Shown piece after piece: positions 13,491 through 27,671 of a stretch of 64,000 nt of DNA; position 1 is the stretch's first letter; the number at the start of each line of letters is the position of its first letter. The translations under genes and the position numbers were made by a program. The stretch comes from Phycisphaeraceae bacterium. Lineage in GTDB: Bacteria > Planctomycetota > Phycisphaerae > Phycisphaerales > Phycisphaeraceae. The stretch covers positions 4,864,001 through 4,928,000 of the forward strand of contig OY771506.1 of NCBI GenBank assembly GCA_963674705.1, read 5' to 3'. The notes under the pieces were generated by a model. It was not told the origin of the DNA. It searched no databases and was given only the letters and a program-made list of their open reading frames with translations.

Positions 13491-14978
13491 TCAACTGTAT
13501 GACGAATCCTCACGCACCTCGGCCGTGTAGTTCGGGCTTTCCTTGGTGATGCTGATGTCGTGCGGATGCGACTCGACCAGCGAAGCGCCACTGACGCGCA
13601 CGAACCTTGCTTCTGTCTTCAGTGCTTCGATCGTCTGTGTACCGCAGTAGCCCATCCCGGCCTTCAACCCGCCGACCATCTGGTACACGAAGTCGGACAG
13701 CGGCCCGCGGTACGGCACGCGGCCTTCCACGCCCTCGGGCACCATCTTGTCACGCTCCAAACCCTTCTGGCTATAACGGTCGGCCGAACCCTTCATCATC
13801 GCGCCTTGCGAACCCATCCCGCGATACGTCTTGTACCGCCTGCCTTGATGGATCACCATCTCGCCGGGCGATTCATCAAGACCGGCAAACAGCGAACCAA
13901 GCATCACGCACGACGCACCGGCGGCGATGGCCTTGGTGATGTCGCCCGAATGACGGATACCGCCGTCCGCGATGACCGGCACACCCGCGCCGTCCGCCGC
14001 TCGGCAGCCGTTCGCGATCGCTGTGAGCTGCGGCACACCCACACCCGTCACGACGCGCGTCGTGCAGATCGAGCCTGGCCCGATGCCGACTTTCACCGCA
14101 TCCGCGCCGGCTTCGATCAGGTCCTGCGCCCCGTGTTGCGTTGCGACGTTGCCGGCAACAACATCGATCGAATACCGTGACTTGATCGCCTTGACCGTCT
14201 CGATCACGTTCGAGCTGTGCCCGTGCGCCGAGTCGACCACCAGCACATCGACCTCTGCTTTAATCAGTTCATCCACGCGGTCGAGTTGATGCACGCCGAC
14301 CGCTGCCCCCACACGCAACCGGCCACGCTCATCACGACACGCCAGCGGGAACTGGCTCAGCTTCTCGATGTCGCGCATCGTGATCAGGCCCGTCAGCCGC
14401 ATATTGTCATCAACCAGCAGCAGCTTCTCGACCTTGTTCTTATTGAGGATCGCGTGTGCCTGCTCCAGCGTCGTGTCCGGCTTACCCGTCACCAGCGGAT
14501 CGGCCGTCATCACTTCGCTGATCGGCCTGTCGTCTTCCGAGAGGAACATCATGTCCCGGCGGGTGATGATCCCGACGACGCGCCCGGTCGTTTTGCCGTT
14601 GTCTGTGATGGGCACGCCGGAGATATTCTGCTCAGCCATGAGTTGCCGGGCCTTGCTCGAAGGTGCATCCGGCGGCAGGGTGACGGGGTCGGTGATCACG
14701 CCGTTGGCCGAGCGTTTGACTTTCGTCACCTCGCGGACCTGCTGGTCGATCGACAGGTTCTTGTGGATAAAGCCCAGCCCGCCTTCCTGCGCCAGCGCGA
14801 TCGCCAGCGCGGACTCGGTGACCGTATCCATCGGCGCCGACAGTAGCGGGATATTCAGCCGGACGTTCGCGGTGAGTTGTGTTGAGGTATCCGCCAAGGC
14901 GGGCACGACATCGCTGCGTGCGGGGGTAAGCAGGACGTCGTCGAACGTGATGCCATCGCAGAGAATTTTGTCTTCCAT
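13491..14978 (-). CDS. guaB: IMP dehydrogenase
   Basis: [12 protein letters not shown] pair, [26 protein letters not shown]. Confidence 0.98.
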
Positions 14979-15027
14979 GTATCACAGATACCGCCGTAAG
15001 CGCCTGTCGTCAAGCCGGGGGGGGGGG

Positions 15028-15137
15028 AGAAAAGCAGGAAACCCAGAAAAGCAGAAAATAAGAAAAGCCGTTAGCCGTAGCCGTTAGCACAAATCATAAA
15101 TCACAAATCCTAAATCATAAATACAATTCCCCCACCC
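15028..15137 (-). repeat. Partial reverse-oriented copy of the composite heptamer element
   Basis: 15065-15137 is a close reverse complement of about 25683-25765 (TTAGCCG array, AAATCAT/AAATCCT array, AATTCCCCCACCC); preceded by an AGAAAAGC-like 8-mer array. Confidence 0.75.
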
Positions 15138-15149
15138 GATATCCGAAAT

Positions 15150-15179
15150 AAAAACCGGCCGTCCATGAAGGACGGCCGG
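15150..15179 (-). terminator. Rho-independent terminator after the pilin-like gene
   Basis: CCGGCCGTCC-loop-GGACGGCCGG followed by a T-run on the minus strand. Confidence 0.75.
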
Positions 15180-15231
15180 CGTCAGATTTTTTACTTTTCA
15201 GCCCCGAACAAGCGGGCCGAAGGCTTTGAAC

Positions 15232-16071
15232 TTAGTCGCTGGCAACGTCGGCGTCATCATAGCCCCACGACTCGTAGCCCAGCAGAGCGTTGGACGATTC
15301 ATCCCAAGTCACCGTGGTGTCGCTGACGAGGTCCGCTTCTGGATCACTAGTATCTTGCTCCATGCTGAAGAGGCGGTCGCCTTCGATGTTGGAGAAGGAA
15401 CCGTACTTGGTGTCCTGAAGGTCTGACTGCTCGAAGGAGGCGCTGCCGTCGCCGCGACCGACGCTGCCTGCCCAATCGGCGTCATCTTCCGAGGTGTGGA
15501 TGCTGTAGAGGTCTTCGTAGTTGCCGATATCACCACGGGCACGGTCGGTGACGAGCACGGCCTGGGTGTTGATCGACTGCTTCCATTCACGGGCACGGCC
15601 GGATTCACTCGGACGGATCTTGGAAGTTGCACTGAAGGTGCCCGTACCATCGTGGATGTTCAGCATCGCGTAGGAATAGTTCTGGGTCGTCACGTCATCG
15701 GTGGTCCAGGCGGTCTTGGTCTCAGCCGGGCTGATGACGTAGTCGCCACTGAAGTTGTTGTTGTCCAGCATGATCCAGAAACGGGCTTCAACGGTGCCGC
15801 CTTGGCCGGATGCACCGGTCTTGGAGGTGTTGACGTTGCCGTCGTCGTAAATGATGTAACCCTTGCTGTCGGTACCGGGCATACGCTCCTTGTTACCGCC
15901 GGCGTAGGTGACCATGCCCTGGCAGATGCCGCGGACCTGGGTGGTGTTCTTCATCTGGCGAGCCGCACGGCGAGCTGCACCCAGCGCGGGCAGCAGGATG
16001 CCGATCAGCAGCGCGATGATCGAGATGACCACGAGCAGCTCGATCAGGGTAAAACCTTTGGATCGTTTCAT
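15232..16071 (-). CDS. Prepilin-type N-terminal cleavage/methylation protein (planctomycete DUF1559-like)
   Basis: [34 protein letters not shown]. Confidence 0.9.
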
Positions 16072-16525
16072 TTCATTCGCTCCTAACTAATTGTGTTGTG
16101 ATGGAATCACACACGAAACCATGGATGAACGCTATCGGCTTCGAGTTTGATCCTGAGTGCGGGGGGCCATTTTGATCCGCGTTCGATGAACACCGTACGC
16201 GACATAATGGACAGAGATAATGGCGTATTTGCCCGGCCCGTTTCTCAGCTCTCTCTTAAACCGTCACGTTCGCTCGGGGTGAACCGTTCACCCCTTACAA
16301 ATCGTAATCATACCATTTTCAAACACGGGGGAAGATTTGCGAATCATTAAAAATCCTCCCAGTGCACGTAATATTGTAGCATAATCGCCTGCCATCCGTC
16401 CATGAAACAGATAAACAACGCTTAAATACATGTAATCCCTTTATTATAAAGCCCTTATAGTTTCATGTGAATCTGGGGTACGCCGGCAACCGCCCCCAGA
16501 ACCACCACCTCGCTATCATGAACCC

Positions 16526-17551
16526 ATGACCGAACTTGGCCGTAAAGATAAGCCATGCCACCCGATCGGACGCCCACGCCGGCTGAGGCGGTCGGCAGTG
16601 CTGCGCGATGCCCTGGCGGATACCCACATCCCCCCCGCCGCCCTGATCTACCCGCTGTTCGTCAGCGAGTTGGATGAACCCAAGTGCGTCGCATCGATGC
16701 CGGGCATCAGCCAGTTGCCTGTGCACCTCGCGGTGCAAACCATCAAGCAGCTATCAAGCGATGGCTTGCGACAGTTCATCCTCTTCGGCGTTACACCAGG
16801 TGAAAAGAAAGACGCGACAGGCAGCTACGCCGCGCATCCCGATGCGCCGGTGAACCGTGTTTTAAAAACCGTGCGCGATGCGGGACTCGATGTCGTGATG
16901 CACGCGGACCTGTGCTTCTGCGAATACACAACACACGGCCACTGTGGCGTACTCTGCGATGATGCGCAATCCAACAAACGCAATTCACCCATCGTCGATA
17001 ACGATGCAACGCTTAAGAATCTCGGTAAGACCGCGGTCGCACAAGCGCAGGCCGGCGCCGATGTCGTCGCGCCGTCGTGCATGATGGACGGCATGGTTTG
17101 CGCAATACGCAACGCACTCGACGAAGCGAACCACACGCAAACCGCTATCCTAAGTTACGCCATCAAGTACGCATCCAACTTCTACGGCCCGTTCCGCGAT
17201 GCCGGCGAAGGCGGCATGACCTTCGGCGACCGCAAGGGTTATCAGATGGACTATCGCCGAAGTCGGGAATGGCGCACCGAACTGCAAGCCGACCTGGATG
17301 AAGGCGCGGACATGGTGATGGTCAAGCCGGCTGCGACATATCTGGACATCATCAAGAGCGTGCGCGAAGCGTGTGATGTGCCCGTGGCCGCGTACCACGT
17401 CAGCGGTGAATACGCCATGCTCCACGCCGCAGCGGACAAGGGTTTGATCGACCTGAAAGAAGCAGCGCTCGAAACCACCTACGCGATCCGTCGCGCCGGC
17501 GCCGACCTGATCGTCACCTACTTCGCCCCGCAGTTACTAAAGTGGCTCTAG
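16526..17551 (+). CDS. hemB: Porphobilinogen synthase
   Basis: RPRRLR, CFCEYTTHGHCG, FYGPFRDA, MVMVKPA, AYHVSGEYAM. Confidence 0.97.
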   Translation: MTELGRKDKPCHPIGRPRRLRRSAVLRDALADTHIPPAALIYPLFVSELDEPKCVASMPGISQLPVHLAVQTIKQLSSDGLRQFILFGVTPGEKKDATGSYAAHPDAPVNRVLKTVRDAGLDVVMHADLCFCEYTTHGHCGVLCDDAQSNKRNSPIVDNDATLKNLGKTAVAQAQAGADVVAPSCMMDGMVCAIRNALDEANHTQTAILSYAIKYASNFYGPFRDAGEGGMTFGDRKGYQMDYRRSREWRTELQADLDEGADMVMVKPAATYLDIIKSVREACDVPVAAYHVSGEYAMLHAAADKGLIDLKEAALETTYAIRRAGADLIVTYFAPQLLKWL

Positions 17552-17562
17552 CCGCTTGCGGC

Positions 17563-17910
17563 TTAGCGTTCTTTCTCCGCTGTTTCTTCCCCCTCCCATG
17601 TTTCTTCCATCTGCATCTGATCGAGTTCTTTGTGCCGACGCTCCGCGTGCCGGATCACCTCGGCCTCATCGATACCGAGTTCCTCGAAAGACTTGTCGAA
17701 CCCGATCGCCTTACCACAATCCGGGCAACGCGGCACCACGAGGTTAGTCAGGTTGTACCCACAATGATCGCACAGCCGTGGCGTATCCATGCGGTCTTTG
17801 ATAAGCACCCGGCTGCGACGACTCTTCACCAATGACACCAGCATCAGTATCACCAGGAACAAACCGATCGCAATCGTCGCAATGGTGTACGGATCTGATA
17901 AATGGTTCAA
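17563..17910 (-). CDS. Hypothetical membrane-anchored Zn-ribbon protein
   Basis: N-terminal TM; CDHCGYNL..RCPDCG. Confidence 0.7.
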   Translation of the reverse strand: MNHLSDPYTIATIAIGLFLVILMLVSLVKSRRSRVLIKDRMDTPRLCDHCGYNLTNLVVPRCPDCGKAIGFDKSFEELGIDEAEVIRHAERRHKELDQMQMEETWEGEETAEKER

Positions 17911-17965
17911 GGGTACACCCGTTTCACTTCATTCGCGTCTATTTGCGTTCATTCGCGGTTAAACA

Positions 17966-19726
17966 TCACAACCCATATTCAGTCCACCGCCGATCAACCA
18001 TATCCTTCATCGTCTGATCCATCTTGAGAATCTCCGGCCAGTCTCGCACCGGATTGCCGCCAACCTCTTCGCCCGCAATCTTACGCGTCGCATCGAATCC
18101 GATCTTGTGCCCCGCGCCCAACCGTGGCGCTGCGTGATCTAAAATATCCAACGGCCCGTTAACGATCTCGATGTCACGCCCCGGGTCAACATTCGCGCAC
18201 AGGTGAAACATCACCTGCTCGTGATCATGCACATCCACATCGTGATCGACCACGACGATCATCTTTGTCCACGCCATCTGTCCCGCCCCCCAGACCGAAT
18301 GCATCACCCGCCTTGCCTGCAGCGGGTATTCCTTCTTGATCTTGATGAACGCGCAGTTATGAAACGCGCCGAACATCGGCAAATCGTAATCAATAATGTC
18401 CGGGATCAACGTCCGCAGCAGCGGCAGGAACAAGCGCTCCGTCGCCTTGCCCAGATAGTAATCCTCCTGAGGCGGCAACCCCACCACCGTCGCCGGATAC
18501 ACCGCTTCATGCCGATGCGTGATCGCGGTGACCGTGAACACCGGGTAACGATCGGGTAGCGAATAGAAACCGGTGTGGTCGCCGAACGGGCCTTCGAAAA
18601 CTTCTTCGTTAGGCTTGAGGCTTGAGGCTTGAGGCTTGCGAGGGTCTTTTATCCGGGGGGCATCTATCCGGGGGTCGTAGCCCGGCCCACCTGCATCGAG
18701 ACTCACGTAACCTTCGATCACGATCTCCGCATTGGCCGGCACGTGCATGTCGATCGTCTTGCACTTCACCAACGGGATACCCGCGTTATTCAAAAAACCT
18801 GCAAACAACAACTCACTCACGCCCGGCGGCAACGGCGCCGTCGCCGCATAAGGCAACACCGCCTCCCCGCCCAACACAATCGCACAAGGCATCCCCCCCC
18901 CGGAAGTATCCCCTGTCTTTATTTCCAGCTTTCCAGCTTTCCAGCTTTCCAGCTTTTCCTGCTTCGCCTTCTCCTTCCAAGCCCGCCAATGCCGTGCACC
19001 GTCATGATGCATATGCCAGTGCATCGCCGTGTGATTCTTATCGATCAACTGCGCGCGATACATCCCGATATTTCGGCTAGGTCTCGGTTCGCCCTCCGGC
19101 TTGCCCGCATCGTCCGGATGAATCGTGTACATCCCAGCAAATGTGATGTATCGCCCTTCACCTTTCGCTGTCCCCGCTTCTTCTGGCGACACCGGATACC
19201 CGCATTGACGGGGGTCGCCGTCGTCAGGCCAACACTTGATGATCGGCAATTCAAAAAGGTCGATCTCATCGCCCGTCTTCACAACCTCCTGACACGCACC
19301 GTTCTTCACAATCTTCGGCCCGAACGACGCGATCTTCGCAAGCTCAAGCCCCTTCTTGATCTTCTCGACGATCCCCGTCGGCGGCTCGGGCTTCACCAGC
19401 GCTTCCACCTTCGCCGCCAAAGATTCAAACCCGCCCGCCTCGCAACCCAGCGCCATCTCCATCCGCCGGTAGCTGCCGAACGCATTGATCAGTAATGGAA
19501 ACTTCGCCCCCTCGACGTTTTCAAAAAGTAACGCCTTACCGCCCAGCGCATGATGATGCGGATCAAACGCCTTGGCATGCTCGCTCTGCCTCGCCGCCGG
19601 CGACTTGCACATCCGATCAGCGATCTCCGTCACCTCCAGCATGGGTGATACCGGAACCTTAACCCGCGCAAGCTCCCCCTCCGCCGCCAACGCCGAAACA
19701 AATGCTTGAAGATCTTCGTATGCCAT
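17966..19726 (-). CDS. UbiD-family prFMN decarboxylase (menaquinone/futalosine-pathway type)
   Basis: MAYEDLQAF start, NIGMYR, VPANAEIVIEG, EGPFGDHTGFY, PPQED, DILDHA; carries in-frame repeat insertions. Confidence 0.93.
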   Translation of the reverse strand: MAYEDLQAFVSALAAEGELARVKVPVSPMLEVTEIADRMCKSPAARQSEHAKAFDPHHHALGGKALLFENVEGAKFPLLINAFGSYRRMEMALGCEAGGFESLAAKVEALVKPEPPTGIVEKIKKGLELAKIASFGPKIVKNGACQEVVKTGDEIDLFELPIIKCWPDDGDPRQCGYPVSPEEAGTAKGEGRYITFAGMYTIHPDDAGKPEGEPRPSRNIGMYRAQLIDKNHTAMHWHMHHDGARHWRAWKEKAKQEKLESWKAGKLEIKTGDTSGGGMPCAIVLGGEAVLPYAATAPLPPGVSELLFAGFLNNAGIPLVKCKTIDMHVPANAEIVIEGYVSLDAGGPGYDPRIDAPRIKDPRKPQASSLKPNEEVFEGPFGDHTGFYSLPDRYPVFTVTAITHRHEAVYPATVVGLPPQEDYYLGKATERLFLPLLRTLIPDIIDYDLPMFGAFHNCAFIKIKKEYPLQARRVMHSVWGAGQMAWTKMIVVVDHDVDVHDHEQVMFHLCANVDPGRDIEIVNGPLDILDHAAPRLGAGHKIGFDATRKIAGEEVGGNPVRDWPEILKMDQTMKDMVDRRWTEYGL

Positions 19727-19750
19727 CGCACCGTCCTGACTGTTAAAAAC

Positions 19751-19854
19751 AATTAGCCACAGATGAACACAGATAAACACGGATAAGAAAAAACAGAAGT
19801 AATATTCTCCAATTATTCCTATCTGTGTTCATCCGTGTTCATCTGTGGCTAATT
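19751..19854. repeat. Inverted decamer-array hairpin (CACAGATGAA family), copy 1
   Basis: AATTAGCCACAGATGAACACAGATAAACACGGAT...ATCTGTGTTCATCCGTGTTCATCTGTGGCTAATT. Confidence 0.9.
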
Positions 19855-19902
19855 CTTATGTCCTACTTCGCGCTCTTCGCGTCTTCGCGGTTAACTCAAT
19901 CA

Positions 19903-20742
19903 TTACTTCCCAAGTTCCCGGCCGCGCGCTTCCGCTGCTTTCACCGCATCTGCGATCACATTCACAAGATCATGCTTATCCATGTGCCCAAGCGCCGCGG
20001 CCGTCGTCCCGCCGGGGCTTGTCACCTTGCGACGCAGTTCCGCAGCCGTATCAGGTGAATCCAGCAGCATCCGCGCTGCGCCTAATATAGTCTGCGATAC
20101 CAGCAGCCGGCTGTGCTCGCCTAATCCCAACTCCACCGCCGCCTTTTCCATCGCCTCCGCCAGGTAATACACATACGCAGGCCCGGATCCCGATACCGCC
20201 GTGATCGCGTCCATCAGTTCTTCTTCAACGCGCACCACTTCGCCTGCCGCGCCGAATAACCGCATCGCAAGCACTTCATCGCCCGCCTTCGCGTCCGCCC
20301 CCACACACAACCCCGCCATCCCTAATCCCACCATCATCGGCGTGTTCGGCATGACACGGATGACTCGAGGCTTGAGGCTCGAGGCTTGAGGCTTGGAGGC
20401 TGAAGCAGCCGCCATCACTTTCGCCAGTTTCGCCGTGCCGATCCCCGCCATGATGGATATGTAAACGTGATCTTCACGCGCATGCGCAGCAAGGTCTGCC
20501 GCCACATCCGGCAACACCTGCGGCTTCACCGCCAGCATCACCTGCTGACTGCTGCTGATTACTTCGCCATTACTTTCAGCAACCTTGATCCCAAGCCCAG
20601 CGAACAACTCCCGCCTCGCTTCGCTTGTGTCCGATGCGATCATCTCGTCCGCGCTGAGCACACCCTTCTCAATCGCACCTCTTGCGATCGCCTCAGCCAT
20701 ATTCCCCGCACCCACAAACCCCAGCTTGTAAGCCGCTGCCAT
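19903..20742 (-). CDS. proC: Pyrroline-5-carboxylate reductase
   Basis: GFVGAGNMA, LAVKPQ, RVMPNTP, TAVSGSGPAY, VTSPGGTT. Confidence 0.97.
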   Translation of the reverse strand: MAAAYKLGFVGAGNMAEAIARGAIEKGVLSADEMIASDTSEARRELFAGLGIKVAESNGEVISSSQQVMLAVKPQVLPDVAADLAAHAREDHVYISIMAGIGTAKLAKVMAAASASKPQASSLKPRVIRVMPNTPMMVGLGMAGLCVGADAKAGDEVLAMRLFGAAGEVVRVEEELMDAITAVSGSGPAYVYYLAEAMEKAAVELGLGEHSRLLVSQTILGAARMLLDSPDTAAELRRKVTSPGGTTAAALGHMDKHDLVNVIADAVKAAEARGRELGK

Positions 20743-20776
20743 GAATCAGTTTCCTTGTCTTTGCCTCATGTCCGAT

Positions 20777-20895
20777 CCCCTCTCCCCTCGGGAGAAGGTT
20801 AGGATGAGGGCCGGATTGATTACGTATTCAACCTGGCCCGATTCACCTAAAAATAAAACAAGCACTCAACCCGGCCCTCTCCCAAGAGGAGAGGC
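20777..20895. repeat. CCCTCTCCC-family palindromic repeat pair
   Basis: CCCTCTCCCCTCGGGAGAAGGTTAGGATGAGGGCCGG...CCGGCCCTCTCCCAAGAGGAGAGG; homologous copies at about 36712, 40393 and 42037. Confidence 0.8.
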
Positions 20896-20917
20896 AGTCA
20901 AACCACATTGATCTATA

Positions 20918-21811
20918 CTATTCACCCGAACGCCCACCATCCCAGGCGTCCCGTGCTTCCTTCGCACCTTTCAACAACCGTCGCATCGCCCCCGTGTCCG
21001 ATCGTGCAAGCGCTTTGCGGAATGATTCGAGTTCCTGCTCCGCTCGCTGCAAAACTTCGACCACCGACGACCGATTGTTCATGAAGATGTCGATCCACAG
21101 TTCAGGATCGCCCGACGCGATGCGCGTCGTATCCGCAAAACCCGTCGACGCCACCTGCAGCGCATCGCCACCGTCCGCCGCCGCCAGCTTCACCAACAGC
21201 GCCGCCACCGCGTGCGGCAGGTGACTGACCAACGCCACACTGCGGTCGTGCATGATCGGCGGCATCTCGAATAACCGCATCCCCACTATCTGCCACATCG
21301 ACCGCACGCTCGTAAGCACTTCATCGCTCTCGCCGCCCATCGGCGTCACCACGCAAGGCTTGCCCTCAAACAAATCCACAACCGCCGCCTCCGGCCCGGT
21401 CTGCTCGCTGCCCGCCATCGGGTGCGATCCCACAAACCGCGATGCGTCAGGCAGAATCTCTTCCACCAACTCACATACCGACTGCTTCGTCGAGCCAACA
21501 TCCGTCACAAATAACCGTGGGTCGTCCGAACATGAAATCTTTTCCAGCACTTCCCGGAAGAATCCCAAAGGCGTCGCGACCACCGCCAGGTGCGGCTCAT
21601 CGCTCGGTAAATCACGCCCCCAGAGCAAAGCCTCCTGCGTGCTCGCAGTCAATTCATCGAAACACCCCAGTTTCCGAGTCTTTTCCAGCGTCGATTCGCG
21701 CCGCCCCACGCCCACCAAACGCCCCGTAAATCCACGCTGTTTCAGCGCCATCGCAAGACTCGCCCCCAGCAACCCTGTCCCAACGATCGTTATCTGTTTC
21801 AACCGCAGCAT
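20918..21811 (-). CDS. tyrA: Prephenate/arogenate dehydrogenase
   Basis: IVGTGLLGASLA, TDVGSTK, SHPMAGSE, HD..VSHLPH, TRIAS; start uncertain (21811-21832). Confidence 0.92.
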   Translation of the reverse strand: MLRLKQITIVGTGLLGASLAMALKQRGFTGRLVGVGRRESTLEKTRKLGCFDELTASTQEALLWGRDLPSDEPHLAVVATPLGFFREVLEKISCSDDPRLFVTDVGSTKQSVCELVEEILPDASRFVGSHPMAGSEQTGPEAAVVDLFEGKPCVVTPMGGESDEVLTSVRSMWQIVGMRLFEMPPIMHDRSVALVSHLPHAVAALLVKLAAADGGDALQVASTGFADTTRIASGDPELWIDIFMNNRSSVVEVLQRAEQELESFRKALARSDTGAMRRLLKGAKEARDAWDGGRSGE

Positions 21812-22165
21812 TGTGCCATCCATATATATCACCCCCTGATTTACATACCATTCTCAAAAACCACTCACAGCTTAGCGCGCCGCTCTAAAAAAGCCGCTTG
21901 CGGCTTAGTGCTCCTGCCCTCCCACCAAAACCCCCGGCATATCACCCAAAGCTTGTCCCCACACTTCAACAGCGAGTAAGATAACACTTTACAGACAATC
22001 GTGGCCCCCGCCCAAAACCCGCGGAGTATCCACAACCACCCAACGGGAGGCATATAATCCCACCCCCAAAATGCCCACCCTCTCCAAAGGATGGGACAAA
22101 ACATGAGGGTGGCAAAGTACAAAGGGCATGAAACGCATCCAACGATGTGCCGCCCCCACCCCGAA

Positions 22166-22232
22166 GCCCACGTTCTGTTGAACATGGGCCCACCCCGGGC
22201 GCCCCGAACCCCATGTTCTGTTGAACGTGGGC
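22166..22232. repeat. Tandem pair of 22-24 bp palindromes
   Basis: CCCACGTTC-TGTT-GAACATGGG and CCCATGTTC-TGTT-GAACGTGGG upstream of accA. Confidence 0.7.
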
Positions 22233-22282
22233 AAACCCTCCCCCAAGTGCGGGACGAGGCCTCCCAGGAGAAACCAACAATC

Positions 22283-23293
22283 ATGAGCACACTCAACGCA
22301 TACGCCGGCAACTACGAACTCGAATTTGAACGCCCCCTCATCGCGCTCGAAAGGCAGATCGCCGAACTCGAACGCACCAACGACCCCGACGCCTCCCCCG
22401 CGAAGCTACCGAGCGATGTCAACTTCCGCGCCGAGATCCGCAAGCTACGCCAGTCACACACCGCCATGCTCAAGAAGATCTACGACAAGCTCCCCGCATG
22501 GAACACCGTCATGGTCGCACGACACCCCGGCCGACCACAGTCCATCGACTACATCAACTACTTCGTCAAAGACTTCACCGAACTGCACGGCGACCGCCAC
22601 CAGGGCGACGACCGCGCCATCATCACCGGCTTCGGCCGCATCGGCCCCTACAAGTGCCTCGTCGTCGGTCACCACAAAGGCAAAGACACCAAAGAAAAAA
22701 TCGCCGCGAACTTCGGCTGTGCCCACCCCGAAGGCTACCGAAAAGCCCTGCGCACCATGAAGCTCGCCGAAAAATACAAACTCCCCATCGTCACCTTGAT
22801 CGACACCCCGGGGGCTTACCCCGGCATCGCCGCCGAAGAGCGCGGCCAGGCCGAAGCCATCGCCGTCAACCTCCGCGAAATGTCACGCCTGCAAACCCCC
22901 ATCGTCTCCGTCGTCATCGGCGAAGGCGGCTCCGGCGGCGCACTGGGCATCGGCGTCGCCGACCGACTCGCCATGCTCCAATACGCCTGGTTCTCCGTCA
23001 TCTCCCCCGAAGGCTGCGCCGCCATCCTCTGGAAAACCGCCAACCCCGAAACCAACGCCGCCGCCGCCGAAAACCTCAAACTCACCGCCAACGACAACCT
23101 AAAACTAGGCACCATCGACGGCATGATCGACGAACCCCTGGGTGGAGCCCACCGAAACCCCACCGCCGCTGCCGACTATTTAGAAAAATACTTAATCCAA
23201 ACCATCCGCGAACTGAAGCGGTTTAAGGTCGAGAATCTGGTGAATAAACGATATGATCGTTTGAGGAAGATTGGGGAGTTGGGGGAAGGGTGA
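22283..23293 (+). CDS. accA: Acetyl-CoA carboxylase carboxyltransferase alpha
   Basis: ARHPGRP, ELHGDR, PEGYRKALR, DTPGAYPG, GEGGSGGALG, SVISPEGCAAILW. Confidence 0.97.
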   Translation: MSTLNAYAGNYELEFERPLIALERQIAELERTNDPDASPAKLPSDVNFRAEIRKLRQSHTAMLKKIYDKLPAWNTVMVARHPGRPQSIDYINYFVKDFTELHGDRHQGDDRAIITGFGRIGPYKCLVVGHHKGKDTKEKIAANFGCAHPEGYRKALRTMKLAEKYKLPIVTLIDTPGAYPGIAAEERGQAEAIAVNLREMSRLQTPIVSVVIGEGGSGGALGIGVADRLAMLQYAWFSVISPEGCAAILWKTANPETNAAAAENLKLTANDNLKLGTIDGMIDEPLGGAHRNPTAAADYLEKYLIQTIRELKRFKVENLVNKRYDRLRKIGELGEG

Positions 23294-23357
23294 TTTACTT
23301 TGTTTAAGTACTTAGTAAGATGGCGCAACACCTCTAGCGTCAAAGTGGGGTCTACTC

Positions 23358-23651
23358 ATGTCACCTGTTCCACGTAGTAGCTTCAAGTTTAGCATTACAG
23401 TGAAATGCCACGAACTTGCTATTGTCTATTGCTTGCGTGGTTTGAGCATGTACTGCCAAGTTGGTGGGAATGTCTACACACCGTGGAGTGGTACTGGAAG
23501 AAATGAGTGGGAGCGTGAAAAACACAACGTGACATTTCGTTTTACTTCGCCTGAGTACCGAACTTCGTTCCTTGACCAAGCCAAGCAAATCCTTCCCCAT
23601 GAATCTTTTAGCATAGTTGAGCAAGATGACAACAATCCTCCCCCAGATTAA
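23358..23651 (+). CDS. Hypothetical protein (low GC)
   Basis: 97-aa ORF in a visibly lower-GC segment directly after accA. Confidence 0.55.
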   Translation: MSPVPRSSFKFSITVKCHELAIVYCLRGLSMYCQVGGNVYTPWSGTGRNEWEREKHNVTFRFTSPEYRTSFLDQAKQILPHESFSIVEQDDNNPPPD

Positions 23652-23816
23652 AAACATTTTCAATTCTGAGAACGTATCTGACCTCGTTCCAAAATGCGGG
23701 TCGGAGACTGCCATACTGCCACTCGCCTGTTTCTAAATGATACTACGGCCTTGTCGATGATATAAATATTCCAGTGTTTTACGCCGAAGGCCTTTCTTGG
23801 AGAAAGGGGTATTGAA

Positions 23817-24353
23817 ATGAGGTATATTCAATCAACTTTGAATAGTGGTTGTTTACTGGTATTGACCTTATCACTACTTCAAGGCTGCAATAACACTCCA
23901 CATGCTCATGGATATAGACCGGAAACATCTCAGAACTATCAGCCGACAAATTCTTGCGAGATTGTACATATCGATGTCGGAACGGAACCACAGGTACGCC
24001 GCAGTAGATACCCAAACCATATCTTGATTGGATACAGCAGTTACGAAGGAAGACCGGAGAATGAGATACCCGCATATTGCAGTCTGAAAGCGTTCGCACG
24101 GAAAAAAGGGGCTAATGTCGTCCTATTAAGTGAAGAGTACCTGCGTACAGGAGTGATGTCGGGCGTACTACCATTACCTCAACAGGACACAACGTATCAC
24201 TCAGGTAGCATATCTGGTAGCAGTGGACATGCCAGTTATTCTGGGACATCTACAACACATACCACGCAGTACCAGCCATATTCATCCACCTACGACATTT
24301 ACAGCATTCGCGCCTGGTACTTGCGAGACCCTACTGTAAATAACAGCAAGTAG
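23817..24353 (+). CDS. Hypothetical lipoprotein
   Basis: LSLLQGC lipobox; FARKKGANVVL; Ser/Thr/Gly-rich tail. Confidence 0.7.
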   Translation: MRYIQSTLNSGCLLVLTLSLLQGCNNTPHAHGYRPETSQNYQPTNSCEIVHIDVGTEPQVRRSRYPNHILIGYSSYEGRPENEIPAYCSLKAFARKKGANVVLLSEEYLRTGVMSGVLPLPQQDTTYHSGSISGSSGHASYSGTSTTHTTQYQPYSSTYDIYSIRAWYLRDPTVNNSK

Positions 24354-24394
24354 CCGGGTGCCCGTCTTTGATCCGCAGGGCAAAGGCGGTTGAC
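24353..24394 (+). repeat. 42-bp palindromic repeat, copy 1
   Basis: GCCGGGTGCCCGTCTTTGA(T/C)CCGCAGGGCAAAGGCGGTTGAC; also at 24494-24535 and 27893-27934, partial at 26389-26403. Confidence 0.9.
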
Positions 24395-24493
24395 ACGAGT
24401 GGAACGGAATCTGCCACCGTCCTACCTTTAAAATAAAAACCACAACAAACCCAACCGGGACCCAAATCATGAGCAATCCGGGATGTCTTCTGG

Positions 24494-24650
24494 GCCGGGT
24501 GCCCGTCTTTGACCCGCAGGGCAAAGGCGGTTGACGTACGACGACTTCAAGCTTCTGGACAACCATTCATGTGATCGATTCGTAGGTCCGGGCCTGCCCG
24601 GACAATTGGTCACACCAAACAATCTCGTGTCCGGGCAGGCCCGGACCTAC
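24494..24650 (+). repeat. About 160-bp composite direct repeat A (42-bp palindrome + linker + GTAG REP doublet)
   Basis: Closely matches 27893-28067; GTAGGTCCGGGCCTGCCCGGACA and its inverse. Confidence 0.9.
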
Positions 24651-24678
24651 ATGGCGGGATGCAAGAAGAAGAAACAGG

Positions 24679-24745
24679 GAACACTAATCTGCACTGATTT
24701 ACACTTATTCAGAAGATTAGTGGAGATTAGTGATGATTAGTGTTC
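24679..24745. repeat. Inverted short-period array hairpin (CACTAATC family)
   Basis: GAACACTAATCTGCACTGATTTACACT...ATTAGTGGAGATTAGTGATGATTAGTGTTC. Confidence 0.7.
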
Positions 24746-24912
24746 TAACTGGTATTGGTTTGGGCTCTGTCTCAGAGAACCTGCGCTCGGCGCGGGCCTC
24801 CCGACGCCGTAACTCTATTCTTGGGTTGCACACGAGCGTGCGTTATACTCATATGCGATGAGCCCGGTGTTGCTGCCGGGCGTGGGGCATATACGCTTTT
24901 TCGGATGGGAAC

Positions 24913-25677
24913 ATGGCTATGAAATACCTCTGTGGCGCACTCGTGTGTTTGCTGTTGGCTGTATCGGTATCGGCGGAACTGCCTGACAGATCGGAGCTCG
25001 AAGCTCGGCTGGCGGAGAACCCGGATGATAGAGCGGCGCTGTACAACCTTGGGTTGGTGTTATACCTGGACGGTGAACCCAAGGAAGCGATCGCGCCTTG
25101 GTCGCACCTGCGGGAGCTGGAGCCAAACGACTGGCAGGTCATCACCAAACTGATCCAGGCGTACACGGCCTGCGGCGAAAGCCATAAAAAGGTGCGCGAA
25201 CAAACCATCAGCGAACTCTACGAGCTGCGCAAAAGCGAAGAGATCCCGGAGTTAACCAAAGCGAAGTTCTTCATCCGCGACCAGATTGTCTACGAGGACA
25301 ACCGGATATACGTCTTCGAGTACTACGACATGGACGCGGGCTGGCGCCTCGGGCCGTTGCTTTGGAAGTTCTACATCACCGAAGAGAACGAACCTACCGG
25401 CCAATTAATCACCGTCGGCAGCTACGACACCACAACCGCATTAGCAATCGAACAAGGCCGGATCGAAGAGGACGAGCGGATTTATCACCTTGATGAGTAT
25501 CTGGATGACGGCGGCCACCGAACCTACGGCTTCTTCATCAACAAACCAGACTACGACCAGATCAAAGCCACCACACTCGAAATTCTGAAAGGCGAGAAGG
25601 AACCGTTATCCTCATACGATCCTTCAACAAAGACCATCACGATAGACCCATCGGAGGAAAAGGAGGAGGCGGAGTAG
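24913..25677 (+). CDS. Secreted TPR-containing hypothetical protein
   Basis: Signal peptide; ALYNLGLVLYLDGEPKEAI TPR; YHLDEY. Confidence 0.75.
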   Translation: MAMKYLCGALVCLLLAVSVSAELPDRSELEARLAENPDDRAALYNLGLVLYLDGEPKEAIAPWSHLRELEPNDWQVITKLIQAYTACGESHKKVREQTISELYELRKSEEIPELTKAKFFIRDQIVYEDNRIYVFEYYDMDAGWRLGPLLWKFYITEENEPTGQLITVGSYDTTTALAIEQGRIEEDERIYHLDEYLDDGGHRTYGFFINKPDYDQIKATTLEILKGEKEPLSSYDPSTKTITIDPSEEKEEAE

Positions 25678-25900
25678 GGTGTGGGGTGTGGGGAATGGTA
25701 TTTATGATTTAGGATTGATGATTTAGGATTTGTGCTAATGGCTAACAGCTAACGGCTAATGGCTTATCTCCCCTCCCCCACCAACGCCGGTTCTGAGCGA
25801 AGCGAAGGGCCGGGTATCTTCATGTTCAATGTTCGATCTTCAATATTCAATCTGAAAACCGTAATCCAAATCCGTGCTAACGGCTAACAGCTAACAGCTT
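25676..25900. repeat. Composite intergenic repeat element, copy 2
   Basis: GGGTGTG, GATTTAG and GCTAANG arrays; core at 25781-25818; TTCAATN array; second GCTAAC array. Confidence 0.85.
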
Positions 25901-25926
25901 TTCCAACATCAACCGGAACCCAAATC

Positions 25927-26367
25927 ATGGCTCAACCAACCTGTAAATGGCAGATCGCTGTGGGCGCGATCGCGTTTGTCGTGGCTGGGGTCGTCAGCGG
26001 GATCATCTCGTTCAAACTGGTGACTAAATCTTTGACCATCGAGGACATGGTCGACAATATGACGCCCAATGAAAAGGTTGGGTTATCCGACCGCGTCTGG
26101 TTGTACGACACAGGCAACTGCTACATCACCGACGAGACCGGCTTCGGGCTGATCAACGGCGAGATCCTGCGGCTGGGCTACGAATCCGACAACCCGAATA
26201 TGCTGATTGTGGAATACGAACCATACCACCGCTTCCGTGAATCGCCCGACGACACACTACGCATCGCACTGATCGATCTGAAGACCGCAAAAGTCACGCA
26301 TGATCCCGATGTGGACGACGCCGGCATTGCTTCATTAAAAGACGTATCGACTTACTTTGACTATTAA
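25927..26367 (+). CDS. Hypothetical membrane-anchored protein
   Basis: 146-aa ORF with N-terminal TM. Confidence 0.65.
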   Translation: MAQPTCKWQIAVGAIAFVVAGVVSGIISFKLVTKSLTIEDMVDNMTPNEKVGLSDRVWLYDTGNCYITDETGFGLINGEILRLGYESDNPNMLIVEYEPYHRFRESPDDTLRIALIDLKTAKVTHDPDVDDAGIASLKDVSTYFDY

Positions 26368-26409
26368 GCGAGCAGCATGGATGTCCCACTTTGACCCGCA
26401 GGGTAATGT

Positions 26410-26727
26410 GTGCCTGAATTTTTTACTGACCCGGCCCCATTCCCTGATTTCTTTTACCTGGAATCCAACATGTGCTTCAGGATCGAGCAGGATATCTCCC
26501 CACGTGAGCCTTTTGCCGCCTATCGGTATCGGATATACGAAAACGATCGGCTGATCGCCCGGTACTGGCACGATCATAAAGGCGATGATCACGGCATCAC
26601 ATTCGTAGGCCGTTCAAGAATGGATGTCCCCGAAGGCACCATGATCGAATTCATCACCGGTGGTGGCCATGATGAACCGCTTCAACTCACAGCTAAGGCT
26701 GTGGCTTATCTGAAGAGGAATAAATGA
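26410..26727 (+). CDS. Hypothetical protein
   Basis: 105-aa ORF with plausible globular composition (RYWHDHKGDDHG). Confidence 0.55.
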   Translation: MPEFFTDPAPFPDFFYLESNMCFRIEQDISPREPFAAYRYRIYENDRLIARYWHDHKGDDHGITFVGRSRMDVPEGTMIEFITGGGHDEPLQLTAKAVAYLKRNK

Positions 26728-26771
26728 AGTGAGATTACGACATTGTCCGGGCACAGATAATCCGGTGGTTA

Positions 26772-27671
26772 TTACATACCGCCCGTCCGTACCCCACGTC
26801 CACGAAAAACCCAAAAACACATCAAACCACACACCACGATTGTTGCAGGCTCCGGCACGTTGATTCCCGTGCTCGGTGGGATGCCCGCGTTCCAGTTGTT
26901 TAACACAATGTCCAGGTCGTCCAGCCCGACATAGCCATCGCCGGAAGGATCGCCGGCCAGCAGGTCGCCCGGGACGACTGTCGCGTTCCAGTTATTCAAG
27001 ATGATGTCAAGATCATCCAGGCCGACGAAGCCGTCGCCATTCAGGTCACCCGCGATCAGGTTACTGCCGTATTCGATAGTATCGACAGCCCACCAGCCGT
27101 CGCCGGAGGAATCGAACTGCAGTTTGATGATTGGCGGCATGTCGTTGAGGTAGATGCCCCAGAACTCCGCGGTATCACCGGTGCCCGGTGCGCTTTCGAG
27201 TTCATAATTAGCCGTCGCACCACCCACAAACGTGACGATAACAGCCGTCCCGGTGTGGTCGATATCCTGAAAGGCGAAGTAGTCGATCGGCGAACTTGAA
27301 AAGTCAAATTCCAGGTACGGCTTTTCATTCTGGCGAAGCGAGTACACGCCCACAGGATTAGAACCCTTAATCGATCCCGCGCCGCTGATGATCTCGGCTA
27401 TGCCGCTGCTGCTGGTATCGGTGATCACCAACCCCGCGGGGAACAGGCCCGTCACCCCCGAGACATTTTCCCCGTTCGTAAAGCCTGTCTCGAAGTCGAC
27501 CAGGTATTGCGGCATCGTAATGCCCACGGCTGCAAGCCAATTATCGCGCGTGGTTACGTTATTCACAGGCTCGCTGCTGTTGAATAACACCACGTCTGCT
27601 TTGACCGGATTAGCGCAAAGAACCATCAGCGCACCGATACCTGCCGATACATGTTGATGTAACCGATTCAC
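26772..27671 (-). CDS. PEP-CTERM protein with dockerin/EF-hand-like repeats
   Basis: Signal peptide; GDLNGDGFVGLDDLD and GDPSGDGYVGLDDLD; VPEPAT + TM + basic tail; AGGAG upstream of GTG 27671. Confidence 0.88.
   Translation of the reverse strand: MNRLHQHVSAGIGALMVLCANPVKADVVLFNSSEPVNNVTTRDNWLAAVGITMPQYLVDFETGFTNGENVSGVTGLFPAGLVITDTSSSGIAEIISGAGSIKGSNPVGVYSLRQNEKPYLEFDFSSSPIDYFAFQDIDHTGTAVIVTFVGGATANYELESAPGTGDTAEFWGIYLNDMPPIIKLQFDSSGDGWWAVDTIEYGSNLIAGDLNGDGFVGLDDLDIILNNWNATVVPGDLLAGDPSGDGYVGLDDLDIVLNNWNAGIPPSTGINVPEPATIVVCGLMCFWVFRGRGVRTGGM

Follow-up and report, generated by a model that had tools for sequence, protein, structure and literature searches.

The window analysed here is a stretch of 64,000 nucleotides from a Phycisphaeraceae bacterium (contig OY771506.1, positions 4,864,001 to 4,928,000) whose genome, referred to as G000, is a single contig of 5.54 Mb. 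Two genes in the window, a ubiD-family decarboxylase gene and proC, each contain a short tandem array of the heptamer TCAAGCC. Open reading frame (ORF) and repeat calls confirm both arrays, their reading frames and the translations given for them in the original prediction, which drew attention to the shared peptide KPQASSLKP (Table 1). Each array is a single arm without a hairpin (fold z-scores of 0.15 and -1.10). The ubiD gene further contains a third in-frame array, composed of an octamer, and a 15-nt duplication, both additional to what had been described.

The two heptamer arrays pass a check for assembly artefacts, as both are covered from end to end, with 0 differences, by contigs of run X1, which may be the source sample, and the proC gene of a related genome, G009, has a similar array. 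The octamer array falls at a contig overlap in X1 and no single contig bridges it. Runs X3 and X6, which come from two other studies, have substitutions at 20393-20405 that match the proC allele of the relative G004. Searches of window positions 14000-27000 with Rfam gave no match. In the AlphaFold model of ProC (mean predicted local distance difference test score, pLDDT, of 93) residues 111-120 form the sole low-confidence block (pLDDT 60), situated between a helix (103-112) and a strand (126-132), in line with the expectation of a loop. The predicted UbiD model is poor (mean pLDDT 50) with both loops in low-confidence segments, and the loop was placed only through sequence alignment to Escherichia coli UbiD (2idb), which lacks query residues 344-372, corresponding to the whole array segment.

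Table 1. Genes, repeat arrays and related features at the ubiD-proC locus (window coordinates).
Feature	Coordinates	Strand	Description
ubiD-family decarboxylase gene	17966..19726	-	586 aa ORF; Pfam UbiD_N, UbiD, UbiD_C (PF01977/PF20695/PF20696); hosts two arrays
ubiD heptamer array, right-type arm	18611..18638	-	(TCAAGCC)x4; forward strand (AGGCTTG)x4.0; in frame as RKPQASSLKP directly before NEEVFEGPFGDH
ubiD local tandem duplication	18647..18676	-	15 nt; IDAPRIKDPR
ubiD octamer array	18922..18956	-	Unit GCTGGAAA x4.4, called as (TTTCCAGC)x4.4; in frame as EKLESWKAGKLE, directly after HWRAWKEKAK
Empty intergenic hairpin proC/ubiD	19751..19854		10-mer arms, CACAGATRAA family; fold z-score -13.7
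proC, pyrroline-5-carboxylate reductase	19903..20742	-	279 aa ORF; PF03807/PF14748; hosts one array
proC heptamer array, right-type arm, imperfect	20367..20401	-	(TCAAGCC)x4.9; forward strand (GAGGCTT)x4.9; in frame as SASKPQASSLKPR before VIRVMPNTP

The identity of the two peptides is a matter of repeat arithmetic. Because seven is coprime to three, any run of three TCAAGCC units cycles through SSLKPQA whatever the frame, and the reverse strand (GGCTTGA) includes a TGA stop. G000 contains 28 TCAAGCC-family arrays (0 in the control), with 15 in the sense orientation inside ORFs, 0 antisense, and 13 outside. The predicted recurrence of the peptide in the proteome is found: exact rotations of SSLKPQA are present in 7 of 4320 predicted proteins (0, 0, and 0 in three shuffles) and rotations with one mismatch in 17 (0-3 in shuffles). 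The significance attached to the shared peptide is not borne out, since arithmetic together with a stop-codon filter yields it, and KPQASSLKP is probably a by-product and not a functional motif. A stop-codon argument of the same kind was made by MacGregor for the TAACTGA repeat (PMC4679880).

Heptamer arrays are abundant throughout G000, with 439 period-7 Tandem Repeats Finder rows compared to 3 in a codon-shuffled copy. A total of 431 heptamer arrays includes 375 in intergenic regions, 48 inside genes and 8 at gene edges, using the 4320 genes of our own ORF caller. The 48 in-frame arrays are spread over 36 mostly housekeeping genes, including those for AroC, HisF, RecJ, TilS, MnmA, GcvP, IleRS, DnaE, CarB, RsmA, and DnaG as well as BioA, KdsB, MnmG, MutS, PriA, Tgt, DnaX, AcnA, LipB, and MtnA. 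An NCBIfam cut-off is passed by 26 of 36 hosts scanned (34 heptamer hosts, with ubiD and proC excluded, plus two octamer hosts) but by only 9 of 40 length-weighted random genes (Fisher p 2e-5). Every array family has fixed and variable positions, and a CCCCAAT/GGGGATT family is present too. The median length is 4.4-4.5 copies; TCAAGCC arrays have exactly 4 whole units in 22 of 28 cases and 3 in four. Intergenic arrays differ in length among related genomes, the longest having 19.6 units, and 66 of the 383 arrays that are not in frame have at least six units, compared to none of the 48 that are. Families with stops in both orientations are never in frame (0/156, compared to 48/275 for the others), and neither are two families with a hydrophobic peptide in the open orientation (0/20 and 0/12). 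Matches of period 10 inside genes (14) were left out as probable chance. The original proposal that a genome-wide process places short arrays in coding sequence, where those visible are stop-free, frame-keeping and in tolerant loops, is thus upheld. One in-frame heptamer array is in a large helicase-like protein (L350; G000:C1:1701521-1705987) that has sub-cut-off matches to the anti-phage ProA and Hhe families.

Comparison with orthologues shows that the same loops are filled differently in related genomes. The ProC loop is lengthened in 3 of 24 aligned orthologues (the split G007 gene was left out); in G009 it has a TCAAGCC run shorter than that of G000, and in G004 it is of equal length with a GGATGGC array forming the first half. 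Among the ubiD loci (28 listed, including one mis-parsed and one duplicate) a 31-residue form of the loop holds TCAAGCC-like remains in G002, G009, G018, and G027, and the 10 extra residues of G000 correspond to the 15-nt duplication. G004 and G006 have an inverted GGATGGC-type pair in this loop, and at the ubiD octamer site there is a AGCAGAAA-type array in G004 and none in G009. The original analogy to single insertions like those of Rickettsia palindromic elements (RPEs) is not sustained: the ubiD heptamer lies in an old slot, unchanged in length in several relatives, and relatives swap families.

The three corresponding loops of the closest relative of G000 are occupied by different repeat families. 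The GGATGGC family occupies the proC, ubiD, and hisF loops of G004, and the RecJ proteins of G000 and G004 differ in length by exactly 7 residues. In 744 orthologue pairs from these two genomes, drawn from 1.2 of the 5.8 Mb of G004, there are 70 variable segments, of which 10 have arrays (6 of 2232 control windows do); seven of these 10 have arrays in both genomes, the heptamer family being different in four. Intergenic regions also differ, with 36 of 85 array-bearing regions but 60 of 408 array-free ones being less than 80% identical. Among 11 genomes of the genus, 8 have an MtnA loop of TCAAGCC type and three have other sequences there, and no such array is present in the 10 loci listed from outside the genus (21 of 22 loci covered). 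A candidate signal of co-conversion at gene ends was rejected as not specific, with differing stop codons at 8 of 28 replaced array-bearing, 14 of 311 unchanged, and 10 of 66 replaced array-free ends (9, 8 and 8 ends were dropped as out of register). Other genomes likewise have in-frame TCAAGCC arrays: one in a valyl-tRNA synthetase (L251), one at the beginning of a class I tRNA synthetase (L276), and one in a protein of the MtnA family (L252).

The same types of repeat act as the borders of small gene cassettes. Inverted arrays, read by eye, bracket five of the six TIGR02436 genes of G000, which encode four-helix-bundle (S23p/Avd-like) proteins, and all three genes for GxxExxY proteins, which we take to be PD-(D/E)xK nuclease-like. 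These cassettes start directly after a stop codon, within operons, and the five armed TIGR02436 cassettes are situated between protein-coding genes and not in the 23S rRNA gene. Periodic sequence is present on both sides at 18 of 29 TIGR02436 loci in four related genomes compared to 9 of 452 small control genes of G000. The CACAGATRAA 10-mer family of the proC/ubiD hairpin also flanks GxxExxY genes, and the ubiD octamer array resembles the left arm, itself purine-rich, of the lepA cassette. The four-helix-bundle cargo matches PDB entry 2gsc (5 chains; E 3e-23), and its match to NF033474 is weak (E 1.4e-4, far under the cut-off); DUF559 has no match in G000. The original prediction of a dispersal process holds, but it missed the association with these two gene types.

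The connection to TCAAGCC is provided by two relatives, G027 and G058, in which a four-helix-bundle gene is located between two fabF-like genes. The right arm of this cassette is TCAAGCC and is read as the N-terminus of the downstream FabF; the left arm, of GGCTTGA type, is clear in G027, where it provides the stop codon of the upstream gene, and decayed in G058. Fold prediction pairs the two arms of G027 with each other (z -4.3), and at the same site G000 and G004 carry an empty 10-mer hairpin. A GGATGGC-armed cassette precedes ispF in G004, the corresponding site of G000 being clean; no target-site duplication is visible among the junctions listed. The four-helix-bundle gene is absent there from all five other related genomes, although upstream genes differ and the polarity of the change is not firm. 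In G004 the four-helix-bundle gene is joined in frame to IspF via the right arm, the IspF start codon being gone (L125; G004:C1:2602548-2605865), and upstream of ispF in G009 (L449) there is an apparent GxxExxY gene end with a 9-mer arm, i.e. the same gene has another cassette type. Several clades of a tree built from 34 cargo proteins track the insertion site, and the fabH-fabD cargo of G000 groups with that of G009 and not with the closer relative G004 (support 99/92), which suggests cassette exchange between species at this site.

Several other cassettes have individual features. Three (two GxxExxY and one four-helix-bundle) lie within ~3.3 kb of G000 (C1:2217462-2220746) with single host genes of one operon between them. 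A GxxExxY gene with octamer arms (G000:C1:2957915-2958265) has an in-frame TAG near its start and is probably a decaying cassette. A well-supported TIGR02436 clade (G000:C1:3224184-3224501, L122, L132, and L133) is arm-less and conserved across the genus, and is possibly domesticated.

The arms have a consistent polarity. In all 11 loci of the genus, a DnaK/HscA-like gene has a conserved spacer with a left arm before it and a right arm after it; the two arms are exchanged independently, including to non-complementary families. In 19 loci from the wider family both arms are present in five, from four genera, and in the armed loci left-type arms are always on the left and right-type arms always on the right. 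The spacer is discernible by eye without arms in most of the other loci, and the arms were therefore superimposed on the linkers of an older insert. An ancestral hairpin was considered as the origin of the insert and rejected, there being no consistent residual skew in arm-less relatives. The DnaK/HscA-like gene of G005 (L424) has an apparent frameshift and a stop at its left arm, such that the gene is broken or the assembly is wrong here. In intergenic regions left-type arms are in the left half in 136 cases and in the right half in 49, and right-type arms in the right half in 130 and in the left half in 46, in all four gene orientations; conserved sequence precedes left-type arms and follows right-type arms.

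We favor, with modest confidence, the interpretation that in-frame arrays are stray cassette arms that have been copied by recombination-type patching into tolerant loops and then filtered by selection. The heptamer of the window arrays is the one that makes up the right arm of the hairpin-bounded four-helix-bundle cassettes in two relatives. Arm families are limited in number and near-fixed in length, and it is these families that flank TIGR02436 and GxxExxY genes. Composite intergenic modules contain several arm families in repeated order around a non-periodic 29-nt core, with 71 copies in G000 (e.g. after G000:C1 359669, 960629, and 968504), and copying between loci is therefore indicated. 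Such copying could proceed by patching that is anchored on homology or microhomology, the donor arms being at other genomic sites or in the DNA of a relative, with slippage as a secondary modifier of array length. Selection likely retains arrays that are stop-free, keep the frame and encode polar peptides; the loop peptides themselves may be near-neutral, and the cargo proteins may have a role. Recombination processes anchored by homology or microhomology are treated in general terms in PMC2884548.

A number of observations weigh against copying of cassette arms as the source. There is no TCAAGCC-armed cargo gene in G000 or in the genus members examined. In other phyla none of 80 TCAAGCC loci (80 of 120 analysed) adjoins a four-helix-bundle or GxxExxY gene, although the profile search recovered the G027 control and only ~2 such neighbors are expected from the arm to array ratio of G000; a complementary arm is upstream at 11 of these 80 loci, which are from many phyla. 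G002 bears arrays but has no TIGR02436 match in an assembly that is 79% complete, array-rich G003 has just one weak match, and G073 has six TIGR02436 genes and no arms in its DnaK/HscA-like linkers, such that cargo number and array load agree only loosely. A survey by array pattern, in which a reversed control matched about equally, shows only a concentration in this genus and G027. The left and right labels of about 6 of the 20 families come by analogy and not from a cassette, and the stop-codon filter is partly circular, as 'inside a gene' rests on the same ORF caller. Donors of the in-frame arrays cannot be named because only 3 of 48 have at least 12 flanking bases in common with another locus. 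No copying or mobilizing enzyme is identified. G000 holds 3 GIY-YIG and 14 Y1_Tnp matches, and its sole reverse transcriptase match, at 1952900, is more than 260 kb from the nearest TIGR02436 match and has no link to arrays. This reverse transcriptase (L136; G000:C1:1951400-1955026) is 426 aa long and is preceded on its own strand by a 277-aa ORF.

Among the alternatives is a writer enzyme acting at DNA breaks, which would extend both 3' ends with the same unit and leave a left arm followed by a right arm in fixed polarity, similar to healing by telomerase. The pentameric Avd-related four-helix-bundle protein would carry the template or determine the length of 4-5 units, and the GxxExxY proteins would cut. 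In a related proposal, which like the writer enzyme itself we regard as rather doubtful, the four-helix-bundle and GxxExxY cassettes constitute a repeat-writing system in which a pentameric ring recognizes 4-5 units and steers arms to DNA ends bordering conserved sequence. Polarity that is fixed whatever the gene direction, arms that overwrite the two linkers of the older DnaK/HscA-like insert in four genera, and lengths with a maximum at 4-5 units, together with fixed and variable positions particular to each family, would all be accommodated, as would the cargo match to 2gsc, a homopentamer (PMC4990558) of an Avd-like family (PMC10053308). Yet the cassettes encode no polymerase, the only reverse transcriptase of G000 is unlinked to arrays, and the composite modules are copied together with their non-repeat parts, such that templated copying is needed anyway. 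If true, a repeat-writing system would be the source of the long-unexplained bacterial heptamer repeats, and peptide loops of essential enzymes, among them DnaE, IleRS, MutS, UbiD, and ProC, would be continually written and overwritten. Replication slippage from chance seeds, plus selection, with the cassette genes merely located between arrays and the polymerase dictating a period of 7 bases (a proposal of Mrazek, cited in PMC4692102), accounts for the length variation of intergenic arrays, the 7-residue difference in RecJ and the plain 15-nt local duplication in ubiD, and drift between families is possible given that TCAAGCC and ACCAGCC are two bases apart. We nonetheless consider it unlikely as the main process, as it fails to account for the recurrence of a small set of families in different phyla, the polarity rule, the excess of four units over three or the inverted arms around 5 of 6 cargo genes.

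Insertion of whole empty hairpins, in the manner of RPEs or miniature inverted-repeat transposable elements, followed by erosion to single arms with one old insertion per site, would fit the nine left-right pairs that are in frame, spread over 9 of the 36 host genes, the full inverted pair in the ubiD loop of G004 and G006, and the clean and filled states of the site before ispF. It is improbable considering that the DnaK/HscA-like spacer is older than its arms, with no consistent residual skew in arm-less relatives, that arms are swapped independently to non-complementary families, that the ispF junctions listed show no target-site duplication and that inter-arm spacers are not a conserved element. 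A selected functional tag common to core enzymes is highly improbable: the peptide recurs exactly in seven proteins and with one mismatch in 17, is retained by most of the genus in the MtnA loop and resides in hosts enriched for conserved families, but the repeat forces the peptide, proC, ubiD and a MoaB-like gene have it replaced in the closest relative, most orthologues lack it, and the DNA periodicity that is retained is not required by function at the protein level.

Dispersed heptamers have been described previously, including TAACTGA of Beggiatoaceae (MacGregor 2015, PMC4679880) and GGGAATC of Xanthomonas and GGGGAYT of Nostoc (Rehm 2015, PMC4692102). Arrays in ORFs and an orientation filter, with no evident mechanism, are reported for the former (PMC4679880), and a four-unit preference, inverted pairs and 7-11% intragenic copies for Xanthomonas (PMC4692102). 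The arrays of G000 resemble these in having 7-base units in about four copies, mostly intergenic near starts and stops with a minority in ORFs, together with a stop-codon orientation filter, inverted pairs and an origin that both papers leave unexplained; the CCCCAAT/GGGGATT family is common to both as well. They are likewise far above chance, mostly intergenic and of about four units with only stop-free copies in coding sequence, the last being partly circular. Unlike the published repeats, those of G000 form many coexisting families that are swapped at one site, and the in-frame copies are inside core-enzyme domains and not mainly at protein ends. Moreover, the arrays here are the arms of gene cassettes, a link not made in the accessible parts of those two papers. 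The description of an undescribed system is therefore only partly apt, in that heptamer arrays in ORFs and the orientation filter are already in print, whereas the cassette link was not found in the literature searched. No title or opening of an abstract in that literature, whose coverage excludes most subscription journals, links heptamer arrays to four-helix-bundle or GxxExxY genes, and the polarity rule was not found there either.

The cassettes also recall the intervening sequences (IVSs) of 23S rRNA genes, whose cargo S23p (PF05635, TIGR02436) is pentameric and related to Avd (PMC4990558, PMC10053308). ORF-bearing IVSs share the four-helix-bundle cargo family, terminal inverted repeats that form a long stem and a patchy, apparently selfish distribution. 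In contrast to IVSs, the cassettes are between or fused to protein genes, have arms consisting of tandem heptamer or octamer arrays and are accompanied by hundreds of cargo-less arms. A TIGR02436 ORF between inverted repeats is present in the cassettes elsewhere but not at the cargo-less window arrays. In-frame insertions of RPE and BRE elements are reviewed by Delihas (2011, PMC3184786), RPE being one conserved element of ~105-146 nt. As with RPEs, repeat-derived peptide segments are in frame at tolerant sites inside conserved proteins; unlike RPEs, the arms are periodic, 28-35 nt long, of many families, often single, and overwrite older linkers. The arrays are not copies of one conserved palindromic element, those in the window having no hairpin and 3 of 48 having common flanks. 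Avd is an accessory protein of diversity-generating retroelements whose fold family is homologous to the cargo (PMC10053308); unlike those elements, the G000 cassettes have no reverse transcriptase beside them.

Two further repeat features of the window lie next to the genes in Table 1. An imperfect 10-mer-type array is at 17929-17960, just 3' of the ubiD stop codon, and an inverted CCCTCTCCC-type palindrome lies at 20777-20895, between proC and the prephenate dehydrogenase gene; the genome contains 262 copies of its 9-mer.

How bacterial heptamer repeats arise and what S23p/PF05635 proteins do are both open questions in the papers concerned (PMC4679880, PMC4692102, PMC4990558). The present results connect one repeat family with a single type of cassette and add a polarity rule and a length of 4-5 units, which opens a direct test of binding. 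The peptide itself is probably unimportant; the broader observation is a clear example of repeat-driven turnover of protein loops that involves 36 genes in one genome, with other fillings in a relative that is ~94% identical in these proteins.

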